Virus record (IMG/VR): IMGVR_UViG_2645727945_000016
Origin: a virus
Lineage: Duplodnaviria > Heunggongvirae > Uroviricota > Caudoviricetes
Length of the DNA stretch: 4,187 nucleotides
Reading direction: 5' to 3' (one strand)
The notes beneath the pieces were generated by a model, which had not been told where the DNA came from, searched no databases, and saw only the letters and a program-made list of their open reading frames with translations. This document shows positions 1-4,187 of the stretch, in pieces (position 1 is the stretch's first letter; each line of letters opens with the position of its first letter). The translations under genes and the position numbers were made by a program.

Positions 1-15
1 ATCAGTGAAGGTAAT

Positions 16-48
16 TTAAAAACGGTTCTGTGAAAGTGACACGAACCG
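16..48 (-). terminator. Rho-independent terminator on the minus strand, downstream of the 149-aa gene
   Basis: Minus-strand RNA reads CGGUUCGUG-UCACUUU-CACAGAACCG followed by UUUUUAAAUU: a 9-bp stem with one bulged A, a 7-nt loop and a U-tract. It begins 18 nt after the stop codon at 66..68. Confidence 0.6.
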
Positions 49-65
49 ATCTCCATCGATGTTAC

Positions 66-575
<510 letters not shown>

Positions 576-592
576 ATATATATATGTATTTT

Positions 593-666
593 CTCTGTTA
601 AGCGTGAGCTACGTGAAAAATAATTTTTGGTGTGGGTATTAACTTTGCTTTATTCACGTAGAACAC
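593..666. repeat. R1: 74-bp intergenic element, direct-repeat copy of R2, with an internal 9-bp inverted repeat
   Basis: Bases 593..639 (ctctgttaagcgtgagctacgtgaaaaataatttttggtgtgggtat) match 2869..2913 with one substitution and a 2-nt indel. A divergent 13-nt core follows, then ttcacgtagaacac (653..666) matching 2929..2942 at 13 of 14 positions. Internal arms ctacgtgaa (609..617) and ttcacgtag (653..661) are reverse complements. It lies between the tape measure stop (674) and the 149-aa gene. Confidence 0.85.
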
Positions 667-673
667 CGTTAAA

Positions 674-2854
674 TCAATCATCTTCTGGGAATGATGAACT
701 TAATAACGTAGCTTCTGCATATTGGTCGTAGATATTACTGCTAAAGGTCATAAAGCTGGTTTCATCTGGTTTAATGGCAACTTCACCACCAAGTGAAACT
801 TTCACTGGTTCCTGAATACGCTTACTCAAAGCACTAATTTCATCTCTTAGATTTTGGATGTCAGTGCTCGTTAATGATGCATCTTGTTTCATGGTAATCA
901 ATTCTGGATGATTGAATCTTGCAATATTCATTGTGGCATTGTTAAACAATTCACCCATTGAACTAAAAATTCTACTCCATCCTTCGTTAATCACATTCGG
1001 TTTATTAGGGTCACCAGAATACACAGGATTAAAGTCACTACCCACACCTACCCCAGATGGATGCATATTAGCGTTTTTGACTACTTCCTGATTCATAAAA
1101 TCCAGTGCTTTCTTCAATGCATATAAACCAAGAGTGACACCTCTGATTTGTGGAATCATTGAAGCTAATGCTAACGCTGTTTCATAACCGTCATCAGCAT
1201 AACCAATTGCAAGAGCACTACCTACACCACCAGCTACACATTTCAGTTTTTCACCACCTTTACCAGTAGCTACCTGACCAGCCACCTGATTAGCTCTTGT
1301 ACCTAACGTTGTGATTGCTCTTGTCAGGTTCATAACCCCTGTAGTAGCACTGAATAGTGTCTTTGCAGATAACGCTATAGCAAGACCTTTGACGAAGTTG
1401 ATAAATCCATCACCGACTTCATCAAGTAGCTTTCGCTTAGTGTCATCAAGACTGTAATAGAACTTCTTAGTCTGTAAAATCCAGCCTTCAAGGTGATTGT
1501 TAAAGATACGGATGTCATCTACACCAGCTTTAAGCATGTCGATAAGTCCACCGATAGCATCACCAGCGATAGAAGAACTCATACCCATTTCACTAAGCAG
1601 GTTACTCAGGCTGGATAAGAAGCCGTTTAACTCATCCTGTGAACCTGAGAAGATTTTAACCATCGTATCATCCCAGTTGTTTGCTAACTTACCTAAAGCT
1701 GTCTGAGTGCTCTTAGCGACTTCAGCCCAACCACCCGCTTTATCAATCATCAAGCCCATCTGTTTAGCGACTTTAGGGAGAGTATCACTACTTAAAATCT
1801 TCCCGTCTTTCATCGCTTTATCAAGCTCTGTAGCAGTCATACCCAATGCTTCAGCGAATAGCTTAAATGCACCAGCCATACGGTCACCTAACTGCCCACG
1901 TAATTCTTCAGCCTGAATCTTGCCCTTAGAAGCCATTTGCTCAAAAGCCTTCAGAATGCCGTTTAGCTCATCATTACTAAGCCCCATTAAGCGACTCATA
2001 GCCGTTGCATTACCAAATAGCTCCTGTGTCTGTTCCTGTGACATAGAACCCTGAGCACCTGCTGCAAACTTAGCGTAGCTTGATAGCCCTTCAGAGATAT
2101 TAAGACCTGTCTTGTCAGCCAGTCCCCTGATAAATGTTTCAGCTTCAGATGCTTTATCACCAAGTACAAACTTAGCGGCTCTCTGTGCGGAATCTCGTTT
2201 AAGACCTGCATTCATGATGGCCTTGTAAGCGTTAAGAGCACCCATCACAGAGTAAAATGCACCAGATAACTTGATTGCATTGCTTGCAAGATTATTAAAT
2301 GCGTCGCTTGTATTGTTAATGCTGGTGGCCTTTGTCTGTGACCTGAGTTTATTCAACGTTTCACGAAGAGATTGATTTAATTTTGCAAGTTCAGCGTTAA
2401 ACTTTTCACTTCCAATATTGCCAGCTTTACTACTTAATGCGTAAAACTGTGCTTTAAACATTTTAGCCATCAGCGGATTAATATCACCAAGCTTAGACAT
2501 ATTCACACTATGCGCTGCTGTGATTGCTCTGTTGCCGCTAATTCGTGGCTGTCTTGGTTGTTTTGGAGGATTAATAGCGTCATTAACCTGACTTGTGAAA
2601 CGGAAAACTTTAGTATTTCTTGCTCTCTGTTCAATCTTGTCAAAGGTCTTATTAAACTTCCTTTCAAGTTGCCCTAAAGAACTTGTCAGATTGCTGTCAA
2701 GTTGCTTGGTATCGACCTTAAACGCTCTATTCAAATTACGTTCAATTCTTTGTGCTGACTGCAAAGCTGCCTTTTCAACTCTTTGCAAGCCCTTAATAAC
2801 GTTCTCGCTGAAGCCTAGCTCAACGATAAAACTATCAACTTTAAATTGTGCCAT
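674..2854 (-). CDS. Phage tail tape measure protein (726 aa)
   Basis: 2181-nt ORF with AGGTGA (2869..2864) 9 nt upstream of the ATG at 2854 and an in-frame TGA two codons upstream, so this is the first possible start. The translation is long, largely alpha-helical and Ala/Gly/Ser/Leu-rich. The central stretch ELNGILKAFEQMASKGKIQAEELRGQLGDRMAGAFKLFAEALGMTATELDKAMKDGK resembles the conserved tape-measure domain as I recall it, and there are Gly-rich hydrophobic segments near the C-terminus (GGVGSALAIGYADDGYETALALASMIPQIRGVTLGLYAL) typical of this family. Family assignment is from recollection, not a search. Confidence 0.85.
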   Translation of the reverse strand: MAQFKVDSFIVELGFSENVIKGLQRVEKAALQSAQRIERNLNRAFKVDTKQLDSNLTSSLGQLERKFNKTFDKIEQRARNTKVFRFTSQVNDAINPPKQPRQPRISGNRAITAAHSVNMSKLGDINPLMAKMFKAQFYALSSKAGNIGSEKFNAELAKLNQSLRETLNKLRSQTKATSINNTSDAFNNLASNAIKLSGAFYSVMGALNAYKAIMNAGLKRDSAQRAAKFVLGDKASEAETFIRGLADKTGLNISEGLSSYAKFAAGAQGSMSQEQTQELFGNATAMSRLMGLSNDELNGILKAFEQMASKGKIQAEELRGQLGDRMAGAFKLFAEALGMTATELDKAMKDGKILSSDTLPKVAKQMGLMIDKAGGWAEVAKSTQTALGKLANNWDDTMVKIFSGSQDELNGFLSSLSNLLSEMGMSSSIAGDAIGGLIDMLKAGVDDIRIFNNHLEGWILQTKKFYYSLDDTKRKLLDEVGDGFINFVKGLAIALSAKTLFSATTGVMNLTRAITTLGTRANQVAGQVATGKGGEKLKCVAGGVGSALAIGYADDGYETALALASMIPQIRGVTLGLYALKKALDFMNQEVVKNANMHPSGVGVGSDFNPVYSGDPNKPNVINEGWSRIFSSMGELFNNATMNIARFNHPELITMKQDASLTSTDIQNLRDEISALSKRIQEPVKVSLGGEVAIKPDETSFMTFSSNIYDQYAEATLLSSSFPEDD

Positions 2855-2868
2855 TGTTCATATTTCAC

Positions 2869-2942
2869 CTCTGTTAAGCGTGAGCTACGTAAAAAATAAT
2901 TTTTGGTGGGTATATCTGTTCAGAAGATTTCACGTAGCACAC
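2869..2942. repeat. R2: 74-bp intergenic element, direct-repeat copy of R1, immediately upstream of the tape measure RBS
   Basis: See R1. Internal arms gctacgt (2884..2890) and acgtagc (2932..2938) are reverse complements. In minus-strand RNA the stem extends through a U-G wobble (2891/2931) and three A-U pairs. The minus-strand 3' end of the element (CGCTTAACAGAG) runs directly into the GGTGA Shine-Dalgarno of the tape measure gene. Confidence 0.85.
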
Positions 2943-2946
2943 ATAC

Positions 2947-2988
2947 AAAAAAGGGAGAAACTACCGATATCACTCGATAATCTCTCCC
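2947..2988 (-). terminator. Rho-independent terminator on the minus strand between the 67-aa gene and R2
   Basis: Minus-strand RNA reads GGGAGAGAUUAUCGA-GUGAUA-UCGGUAGUUUCUCCC followed by UUUUUU (plus-strand a-run 2947..2952). The stem is 15 bp in the minus transcript, three of them G-U wobbles; on the plus-strand transcript those positions would be A-C mismatches, so the structure is strand-specific. It starts 48 nt after the TAA stop at 3038..3036. Confidence 0.75.
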
Positions 2989-3035
2989 CGTATTATAGAT
3001 TCGATAGAACCTATCTCATATACCCAACCAATTCT

Positions 3036-3239
3036 TTATCTAATCAGATAATAATTACCATCTTCACCGACAATCTGACAATCACTTGGTAATTTATCAA
3101 GACACCATTTAGCGATTCTTCTGATTCTGCTATTTTGCCTAGAGGTGGATGATTTGATTCGTTTTGGTTTGTTGGGTTGTTCTTTCAATCTCTCGCTAAT
3201 TGCTTTAATAAGTTCATAGCGTTCCGTTAAATCAAACAT
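3036..3239 (-). CDS. Hypothetical small basic protein (67 aa)
   Basis: ATG at 3239 preceded by AAGGAGGTGA with a 5-nt spacer. An in-frame TGA lies immediately upstream of the ATG, so it is not a frameshift extension of the 236-aa gene. The central segment is Lys/Arg-rich (KPKRIKSSTSRQNSRIRRIAKW), suggesting nucleic-acid binding. A terminator follows. Function unknown. Confidence 0.65.
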   Translation of the reverse strand: MFDLTERYELIKAISERLKEQPNKPKRIKSSTSRQNSRIRRIAKWCLDKLPSDCQIVGEDGNYYLIR

Positions 3240-3264
3240 TCATCACCTCCTTTTTAATTCATAG

Positions 3265-3975
3265 TCAAAGTGCCTTTGCGTATTTCTGAGAAATCTTCAC
3301 TAACTGCTCAATATCAGCCTGCATAGCAACCTTCTTCTGCGTTTCATATGCAGAAATAAGGTCTTTCATAGCCTGAAGCTCTCTTAAGAGACACAACTTA
3401 ACATTTTCAAGTTGCTTGTTACGTGATGCTAAGATGTTCTGTCTGGCAATTTCACGGAGTTCTTCATCGCTCTTATTGGTCGTGTAAATAAACTGACCAG
3501 CACCTCTTGAAGCTTTAACCATCTTCACAATTCGATGTCCAGCAGGAAGACTACTAATCACGTCTGTGACGTTTTCTGGAAAAGTACCAAAACCATCATT
3601 GTCTTCGTATGTGAAGTAAACATACGGCTTCTGTGACAATTCATCCTGAATCTCAAATTCTGACGGCTCAATAGCTGATTGCATCAGGGTAACTTTGCTG
3701 TAAGCGTCATCAAGTTTAATACGTTGTTCTTTCAGCAGTGGGTAATATTTCTTTTCAAGATTAAGTAGTGCTTCACCCTTGCAGATATCTGGCATTTCTT
3801 GAGGCTCAGGAGACACAAAGATGATTTCCTTTGGTGACATCTTTAGCGATTGCTCAAGCTTAATTCTTTCATCGTGTTCTTTACGCTGAATAGTGATAGC
3901 TGGATGTTCAGTCTGTGGCGACCAGTCACCGAAGCTGTCAACCTTTTTACCGTTAATATATAAATCGTTTGTCAT
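3265..3975 (-). CDS. Hypothetical protein (236 aa) with a predicted coiled-coil C-terminal region; function unknown
   Basis: ATG at 3975 preceded by AGAGGAAA with a 6-7 nt spacer. Stop is TGA at 3267..3265, only 25 nt before the start of the 67-aa gene, so the two are probably co-transcribed. The C-terminal 70 aa or so is helical and heptad-like (EELREIARQNILASRNKQLENVKLCLLRELQAMKDLISAYETQKKVAMQADIEQLVKISQKYAKAL). I do not recognise it as a major tail, tube or chaperone family. Confidence 0.75.
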   Translation of the reverse strand: MTNDLYINGKKVDSFGDWSPQTEHPAITIQRKEHDERIKLEQSLKMSPKEIIFVSPEPQEMPDICKGEALLNLEKKYYPLLKEQRIKLDDAYSKVTLMQSAIEPSEFEIQDELSQKPYVYFTYEDNDGFGTFPENVTDVISSLPAGHRIVKMVKASRGAGQFIYTTNKSDEELREIARQNILASRNKQLENVKLCLLRELQAMKDLISAYETQKKVAMQADIEQLVKISQKYAKAL

Positions 3976-3997
3976 TACTATTTCCTCTAAGTGGTTA

Positions 3998-4075
3998 TTT
4001 CTTAATAGAGCACCTTCGACGACAATACACTTAGAAGATGACTTAACGATTTATTAAAGATGCTCTATTAAGAAA
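3998..4075. promoter_or_regulatory. Perfect 15-bp inverted repeat pair separated by 48 bp, in the 5' region of the 236-aa gene
   Basis: tttcttaatagagca (3998..4012) is the exact reverse complement of tgctctattaagaaa (4061..4075). The proximal arm ends about 10 nt upstream of the RBS of the 236-aa gene. Confidence 0.4.
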
Positions 4076-4104
4076 AGCCCTAAACATAATCTGTGAAGGG
4101 CTTT
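4067..4104 (-). terminator. Weak candidate terminator on the minus strand, for a gene lying upstream beyond the window end
   Basis: aaagccct (4074..4081) and agggcttt (4097..4104) are reverse complements with a 15-nt loop. The minus-strand RNA continues AGGGCUUUUCUUAAU. The stem has only about 4 G-C pairs. All three minus-strand frames have stops at 4150..4175, consistent with an upstream gene ending inside the window. Confidence 0.3.
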
Positions 4105-4187
4105 GAAGGTTTGCTTATAACGTTAACGAAGTTTCAGGAAAAACTTTCTTTAAAAGCTCTGTTTAAAAACTCTTAAAGAAAGCCCTA

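Follow-up and report, generated by a model that had tools for sequence, protein, structure and literature searches.

How is a tape measure gene transcribed when a strong terminator stands directly before it? This question is raised by a stretch of 4,187 nucleotides (nt) from the IMG/VR record IMGVR_UViG_2645727945_000016 (Caudoviricetes), hereafter the window, where a stem-loop (2953..2989, minus strand; 15-16 pairs, 6-nt loop) followed by a T6 tract (2947..2952, minus strand) is located between the gene for a basic protein of 67 amino acids (aa; 3036..3239, minus strand) and the tape measure gene (674..2854, minus strand). All substantial open reading frames (ORFs) of the window lie on the minus strand. 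An earlier note on this DNA had correctly placed the hairpin between these two genes, and had proposed that transcription re-initiates behind it at an element termed R2. Based on folding, shuffle controls and a comparison with related loci, we infer that the hairpin and its T-tract form a genuine, ordinary Rho-independent terminator that would stop transcription in vivo, and transcription of the tape measure gene most likely runs through it.

Read on the minus strand, the hairpin is GGGGAGAGATTATCGA-GTGATA-TCGGTAGTTTCTCCC(T)TTTTT and ends in T6, seen on the plus strand as A6 at 2947-2952 next to the stem-loop at 2953-2989. Fifteen pairs are formed between 2988-2974 and 2953-2967 around a loop at 2973-2968, and an extra sixteenth pair, a G.U, joins 2989 with 2952; the consensus scan of the window lists the hairpin with 16 pairs, six of which are G-C, and a loop of 6 nt. 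Folding of the minus strand with ViennaRNA yielded a free energy of -23.9 kcal/mol (z = -6.06), a value equalled by none of 200 shuffled sequences, compared with just -10.9 kcal/mol for the plus strand, on which the A-run stands before the stem. The plus strand forms nothing terminator-like. This asymmetry arises because the stem contains several G.U pairs. As a control for the whole window, we took the best hairpin ending at a run of at least five T (T5+) as the statistic and generated 300 shuffles preserving dinucleotides. The best such hairpin of the window reached -22.2 kcal/mol, whereas the shuffled sequences averaged -9.5 kcal/mol (standard deviation 2.7, minimum -19.3) and none of the 300 reached -20. 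Terminator-like sites are no more numerous in the window than chance predicts, two being found by the consensus scan for 2.8 expected; the exceptional point is the strength of this site and not the number of such sites. The strand-specific hairpin with a 15-bp stem and a U6 tract reported by the earlier note is thereby confirmed in its coordinates, its strand specificity and its strength. The hairpin is intergenic, on the coding strand, 46 nt past the stop codon of the 67-aa gene. We thus found the features by which intrinsic terminators are recognized, namely a stable G/C-based stem-loop, an adjoining U-tract, an intergenic position past a stop codon on the coding strand and evolutionarily kept pairing. 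A search of the whole window returned no relevant Rfam match at E <= 1, for the hairpin as well as for the R elements discussed below.

The window belongs to a chromosomal island of ~11 kb in Escherichia coli, as exact copies of its tape measure protein and of its 236-aa protein, encoded upstream of the 67-aa gene, occur on chromosomal contigs. We compared 21 distinct loci of this family (the window, L014-L026, L028, L030-L033, L037 and L039). In all 21, the 67-aa gene is followed by a hairpin with a T5-T8 tract; behind the T6 tract of the window comes the conserved motif GTAT(G/A)TG. At least four sequence versions of the terminator exist, namely that of the window, one whose right arm is ...TCGGTAGCTCTCCC, and the forms GGGGAGAGATTAACC-TTAATT-GGTTGGTCCTCCCC and GGAGAGATTATCTGGAT-GGCA-ATCTGGGTAATTCTCC; one more variant differs in the loop. 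Folding energies lie between -17 and -26 kcal/mol for all of them. RNAalifold analysis of 12 distinct sequences resulted in 12 consensus pairs, two of them with compensatory double changes and none broken, and five of the 12 showed one-sided changes from G-C or A-U to G.U. These compensatory and G.U-preserving changes argue that the terminator is selected for RNA pairing on the coding strand, and not for DNA identity alone. A 61-nt segment comprising the terminator was found in 359 of 5426 complete E. coli genomes, always intergenic and in a single copy per island. A dispersed repeat of the REP/ERIC kind was considered and rejected, as the hairpin occurs once per island and at this junction only. 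The modules flanking the terminator are heavily shuffled: three strongly diverged types of the 236-aa protein, with identities of ~85%, ~62% and ~26%, occupy the same position, the 67-aa protein occurs in types of ~92% and ~43% identity, and the tape measure protein in several amino- and carboxy-terminal types. Despite these shuffled neighbours, the position of the terminator after the 67-aa gene is constant across the 21 loci.

R2 (2869..2942, minus strand), an island-specific element of ~75 nt with an 11+3 bp inverted repeat, begins 5 nt past the T-tract, directly after the hairpin as the earlier note had it, and its 3' end enters the ribosome-binding site (RBS) of the tape measure gene. Re-initiation at R2 as a rule is not supported by the relatives, as eight of the 21 loci have no R2 (L015, L020, L021, L024, L026, L030, L033 and L039), nor by R2 itself, in which the consensus scan found no sigma-70-like match. 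In five of these eight loci (L039, L021, L026, L020 and L033), the T-tract and the ATG of the tape measure gene are 20-35 nt apart. The sequence after the T-tract of L039 is GTATGAGGTGAATATGAATAATG, with the RBS beginning 5 nt past the terminator, and therefore there is no room for a promoter plus a 5' untranslated region. The loci without R2 are no decaying copies: the tape measure ORF is intact (647-691 aa) in seven of the eight and in four of the five with a short gap. L026, an island that is complete and whose Dit-like gene and integrase are intact, shows no promoter-like site from the 236-aa gene to the tape measure start; the window likewise contains no sigma-70-like site from the terminator to the tape measure start. 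As the short-gap islands offer no room for a promoter, tape measure mRNA would arise there only from polymerases that pass the terminator. Of the earlier proposal of a module boundary with an independent tape measure unit, the boundary holds, being a real one marked by a real terminator, and the independent unit is contradicted by the relatives.

On balance, we lean towards an operon-internal attenuator or conditional terminator, with tape measure expression depending on read-through. The terminator would end or strongly attenuate transcription of the island's own 236-aa and 67-aa genes and would mark their border with a phage-derived tail module consisting of the tape measure and tube-initiator (Dit-like) genes, without acting as a full stop with obligatory re-initiation. 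Tape measure mRNA would be supplied by polymerase passing the terminator, either as a basal leak or by antitermination upon infection with a Felix O1-type helper phage, and the tail proteins may in this way be kept scarce or absent compared with the products of the 236-aa and 67-aa genes. Such a layout would mirror that of the Felix O1-type phages themselves, in which a terminator stands ~30 nt 5' of the chaperone and tape measure genes. Several points weigh against this reading. At -24 kcal/mol and with U6 the hairpin looks strong, so that passive read-through should be slight, and no gene for an antiterminator was identified, Q-, N- and put-like components not having been specifically searched for. 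The tape measure ORF of L020, one of the short-gap loci, ends after 159 aa, and the gaps of ~45-65 nt in three other loci without R2 (L015, L024 and L030) could just hold a promoter. The window island itself has R2 between the terminator and the tape measure gene, and R, which always stands before the Dit-like gene, has a weak -10-like TATTTT/TAGAAT, by which an activator-dependent promoter is possible. Finally, termination and read-through are both deduced here from the sequence.

Transcripts reaching the terminator have an obvious candidate source upstream. A near-consensus extended -10 promoter, TTGACA-17-TGnCATAAT, is located ~400 nt 5' of the 236-aa gene, outside the window (L002 9575-9603), and is kept in each of the 14 loci compared; transcription of the entire string of genes could start from it. 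The 236-aa gene is preceded by a structured leader of ~400 nt (full region L002 9575-10000), of which the window contains the 3' part (3976..4187, minus strand). In order, the leader comprises a 5' hairpin, then a nested one that varies in its inner sequence but keeps its pairing, two terminator-like hairpins (GCCCTAA..TTAGGGC-TTTCTT) and a hairpin with a 19-bp stem just before the 236-aa RBS (3998-4075, minus strand). One of the terminator-like hairpins lies at 4076-4110 on the minus strand of the window, together with half of the second one at 4170-4187. The leader could be a regulated leader or a small RNA gene of ~190 nt.

If the terminator were a full stop for the 236-aa/67-aa operon, R2 and its second copy R1 (593..666, minus strand, 5' of the Dit-like gene) would carry promoters and each tail gene would be its own unit, perhaps switched by a phage or island activator at the inverted repeat. 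This repeat reads GTG.GCTACGTGAAA ... TTTTACGTAGC.CAC, with an AT-rich, partly conserved centre (ATACCCAC..AAAAAT) and a 3' tail, GCTTAACAGAG, that reaches into the RBS. The start of R2 so close behind the T-tract and its extension into the tape measure RBS would suit such promoters, as would the presence of R before the Dit-like gene in every locus with an intact junction, the strong appearance of the hairpin, the -10-like TATTTT/TAGAAT, which keeps its position and lacks a -35 like late promoters that depend on an activator, and the TACGT motifs of the arms, candidate protein-binding sites. R is optional before the tape measure gene, however, where it occurs in 13 of the 21 loci, and most of the eight loci without it have intact tape measure genes, five of them with the short gaps described above; R1, like R2, contains no sigma-70-like match; and in a related phage terminator and gene follow each other in the same way with no R present. 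The idea that R was copied from a promoter of a helper phage was rejected, as blastn found no match in the genomes of Felix O1-type or other phages and the core motif occurs in IMG/VR in island contexts only. Taken together, we consider promoters in R to be an unlikely explanation of tape measure expression. The stem core of R is invariant except for one G.U/G-C position, shows no compensatory change and is no better than shuffle controls; R could serve as a promoter that depends on an activator, as a site for protein binding or as an element for RNA processing or stability.

A role of the hairpin mainly at the post-transcriptional level, as a protective stem at a 3' end or as a site where a polycistronic RNA is bound or processed, polymerase being little affected, appears very unlikely to us. 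Its stem is unusually long, with 15-16 pairs and a middle part rich in A/U and G.U, it is conserved at the RNA level, and large hairpins are also found before the 236-aa and Dit-like genes, which suggests a heavily structured transcript. An invariant T5-T8 after a G/C-rich stem base is, however, the defining signature of an intrinsic terminator and needless for a stability hairpin, and the location just past a stop codon is typical of terminators. Conservation of the segment mainly as a DNA linker for the exchange of cassettes between islands, with termination being incidental, would account for a terminator and flanks whose conservation far exceeds that of the adjacent genes and for neighbours that each occur in several types and varied combinations. 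Recombination between conserved intergenic repeats does occur, as in L005 (10940-11185), where recombination between R2 and R1 has cleanly deleted the tape measure gene and left a single hybrid R 5' of the Dit-like gene (compared with L002 11033-13397). The compensatory and G.U-preserving changes in the stem nevertheless point to selection on RNA pairing, and a linker function would be compatible with attenuation without replacing it; as the main role we regard it as highly improbable.

The earlier note had treated a terminator before the tape measure gene as an anomaly, an assumption that the comparison with phages does not support. The related Escherichia phage garuso carries a 13-pair terminator (AAGGGGGAGACTTTAAAAGGTCTTCCCCTT + TTTTGTTT) on the coding strand, behind the tube gene and ahead of two chaperone genes, which are in turn followed by its tape measure gene. 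This terminator stands 33 nt from the chaperone start codon and corresponds to t64 of Felix O1 (PMC3185647, Table 2). The arrangement argues that a strong terminator just before the tape measure module is normal in the lineage that gave the island its tail genes. According to the authors of the Felix O1 study, how transcription passes the many terminators of that phage is unknown (PMC3185647). The island and phage terminators are alike in having a strong G-rich stem with a T-tract on the coding strand, in standing ~30 nt 5' of the gene that opens the tape measure module, without an intervening promoter, and in a similar stem base (GGGGAGA...TCCCCTTTTTTGT), and the islands without R2 closely reproduce the phage layout. 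They differ in their neighbours, as the phage terminator follows the tube gene and precedes two chaperone genes, whereas the island terminator comes after the 67-aa gene, which is unrelated, and has the tape measure gene directly behind it, and many islands add R. Beyond generic terminator features, no sequence homology was detectable between the island terminator and t64 or its garuso counterpart. A different Felix O1 terminator, t29 (16583-16616, gggagctatcgagaggtagttccctttttagttt; PMC3185647 Table 2), shares GGGAG, TATCGAG, GGTAGTT and CCCTTTTT with the island hairpin. This sharing of motifs could reflect common descent or coincidence.

Terminators within or before phage late genes are known from other systems. 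In T7, T-phi after the major capsid gene is an attenuating terminator inside a structural operon. Like T-phi, the island element is an intrinsic terminator within a co-directional string of genes and would lower the downstream level through partial read-through; it differs in that the upstream genes of the island are not known to encode abundant structural proteins. In lambdoid late operons, as at PR'-tR' of lambda with Q, promoter-proximal terminators are overcome by antitermination. Here, the likeness is one of layout only, comprising a strong promoter, a leader with terminator-like hairpins, genes and a further strong terminator before the tail genes, and this layout would suit a processive antiterminator.

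The spacer from the 67-aa stop codon to the terminator (2990..3035, minus strand) contains the family-conserved sequence TTGGTTGGGTA and a small hairpin of changing position, GATAGGTTCTATC; the consensus scan also gave a sigma-70-like match here, ATGAGA-16-TATAAT (3019..2992). This match was rejected as a conserved promoter, as it is lost or damaged in most relatives, with TATAAT missing in L016 and altered in L015 and L028, and as its small hairpin occurs on either side of the terminator in different islands. The hairpin module, GAGATAG..CTATCGAATC.TAT (window 2997-3024), is located 5' of the terminator in some islands, 3' of it in L017, L018, L023, L025 and L037, and on both sides in L015 and L037; the intergenic region around the terminator seems to be built of short shuffled modules. 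Just past the 67-aa stop, the family-conserved motif TTGGTTGGGTAT (window 3018-3031) is complementary over 14 nt (86%) to the conserved R2 centre ATATACCCACCAAA (2902-2915), and pairing of the two in RNA would enclose the terminator.

The genes on both sides of the terminator have different origins. Upstream, the 236-aa core island gene (3265..3975, minus strand; function unassigned) and the 67-aa gene encode proteins with no Pfam, PHROG or NCBIfam match, no tblastn match in 50,697 phage records and no BLASTP similarity to the two tape measure chaperones of garuso. The earlier note had considered that this pair might be an insertion. The pair is unrelated to phage tail and chaperone genes, but its members belong to the conserved core genes of the island, and it is the tail genes, not the 236/67 pair, that are the phage-derived part. 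Homologues of the 236-aa protein number 3095 and are found in E. coli, Salmonella, E. fergusonii, E. albertii and Shigella. The label 'transposase', given to this protein by NCBI in most genomes, is unsupported by Pfam, NCBIfam and PHROG models. AlphaFold2 models were of modest confidence (236-aa protein: pLDDT 67, pTM 0.45; 67-aa protein: pLDDT 75, pTM 0.29), the former predicting long helices with a small beta domain, and a Foldseek search against viral structures gave no fold match, with no hit better than E = 0.027 and TM-scores < 0.35.

Downstream, the window's tape measure protein (726 aa; PF20155 TMP_3, phrog_4036, TIGR02675) has its nearest phage relatives in Felixounavirus at 30-34% amino-acid identity. 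Where intact, the island tape measure proteins have 647 to 726 aa, and each of them falls short of the 735 aa found in phage garuso. The Dit-like, tube-initiator gene is represented by its 5' part (94..515, minus strand; PF21821 Dit_like, phrog_3721), with intact copies encoding 262 aa, and its first ~510 nt are 94-97% identical in DNA to Felixounavirus (window 93-491 ~96%; L002 13485-13994). Such near-identical DNA beside a tape measure protein of 30-34% identity implies that island and phage have recently recombined within the Dit-like gene. In the Felixounavirus Bas63, the tape measure gene is followed by that of gp18, a baseplate-hub tube initiator found together with the tip of the tape measure protein (PMC12609058), and by this analogy the island carries both the protein that would nucleate the tail tube and the one that would set its length. 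The Dit-like gene of the window is truncated by the end of an IS21-family insertion sequence (1..93; ISEc12/IS100 type, istB side) that matches ISEc12 ends in many E. coli records at 100% identity. In two other islands (L017 362-2163 and L019 700-2501), the tape measure gene is the one interrupted, by IS100 copies; the tail module may be repeatedly targeted by IS21-family elements, or repeatedly inactivated. A hairpin between R1 and the Dit-like RBS (530..579, minus strand; -12.9 kcal/mol, z -3.1) is kept in L014-L018 and absent from L024 and L026. In the latter two, a possible hydrophobic mini-ORF of 18 codons, MLELLIFIATHGNLLIFI, is located between the tape measure stop and R, ~170 nt 5' of the Dit-like start.

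The premise that this DNA belongs to a canonical long-tailed phage was mistaken, since the ~11 kb island has a serine integrase, a replication initiator and two tail genes only. It splits a DUF72 gene located between cmoA/cmoB and aspS/ruvC and comprises, in order, a Dam methylase gene, a gene for a 320-aa replication-initiator-like protein, small ORFs without assigned function, the 236-aa, 67-aa, tape measure and Dit-like genes and, at the island end, a gene for a large serine recombinase of 507 aa (Resolvase/Recombinase/Zn_ribbon_recom; phrog_95, 1.8e-76). The 320-aa protein has weak matches, 1e-9 to 1e-5, to replication-initiator and DnaD-like PHROGs. The guanine-cytosine content of the island is 37-43%, compared with 50-55% in the flanks, and that of Felix O1 is 39% (PMC3185647). 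No capsid, portal, terminase, sheath, tube or chaperone gene was recognizable in the island, where unannotated ORFs could hide diverged functions, and the tape measure and Dit-like genes are the only structural genes identified by PHROG and Pfam, the other ORFs having no match. A contiguous module of sheath/tube, chaperone, tape measure and baseplate genes, for which phage garuso served as the comparison, is absent from the island. Related islands were found in 480 of the 5426 complete E. coli genomes and use at least two integration sites, the second one being located between tonB and yciI. In a megablast search of the 50,697 phage records, the window matched only at 93-491, in Felix O1-type phages; its part from 2800 to 4187 had no phage match except for the first 54 nt of the tape measure gene. 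Its own integrase and replication initiator, an incomplete virion set and helper-related tape measure and hub genes make the island a candidate satellite of Felix O1-type phages.

Tape measure proteins encoded by satellites, and the chimeric tails built with them, became known in 2026, with a first report on the PLEs of Vibrio cholerae (Mathur et al., Nature 2026, PMC12987554). PLEs integrate by a large serine recombinase, parasitize a lytic myovirus, encode their own chaperone, tape measure and hub proteins with which chimeric tails are built, and have a conserved regulatory small RNA, SviR; in PLE11, the 80-aa protein Rta blocks assembly of the helper tail (PMC12987554). Like PLE11, the E. 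coli island is a small serine-recombinase island with a replication initiator, no capsid or terminase detected and myovirus-related tape measure and hub genes, and beside this module it encodes a small protein of unassigned fold (67 aa, compared with 80 aa for Rta). In both, the tape measure protein is highly diverged from that of the phage (30-34% identity for the island, 20% for PLE) and somewhat shorter, island proteins of 679-726 aa being set here against the 735 aa of garuso. The island differs in its host and helper lineage, in having no recognized tail assembly chaperone and in its tube-initiator gene, which is ~95% identical in DNA to that of the phage over the first 510 nt, pointing to recent exchange; the resemblance is one of gene content and layout only. 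If incorporated into tails, the island tape measure proteins would give slightly shorter tails, as reported for PLE11 (PMC12987554). We found no literature description of this E. coli island family, which thus appears undescribed, although our coverage was incomplete and an earlier description is possible. A broader proposal, which we put forward as tentative and on the doubtful side, is that these are undescribed, widespread PLE-like satellites of E. coli, Salmonella and relatives, present in ~7-9% of complete E. coli genomes, that parasitize lytic myoviruses of the Felix O1 type and use tape measure and tube-initiator proteins of their own to build chimeric tails. A termination cascade, consisting of the conserved terminator and the two leader hairpins, would silence their tail genes until helper-dependent antitermination.

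The terminator itself is ordinary, and its value is that it marks the border between island-specific genes and a two-gene Felix O1-type tail module in hundreds of complete E. coli genomes; the island family is more interesting than the terminator. Read-through in the island, together with the identical layout in the phage, would provide a testable handle on how late transcription of Felix O1-type phages passes its terminators. Felix O1-type phages are used for Salmonella typing, biocontrol and therapy, and an enterobacterial counterpart of the PLEs aimed at them would, if true, matter for phage resistance and gene transfer.

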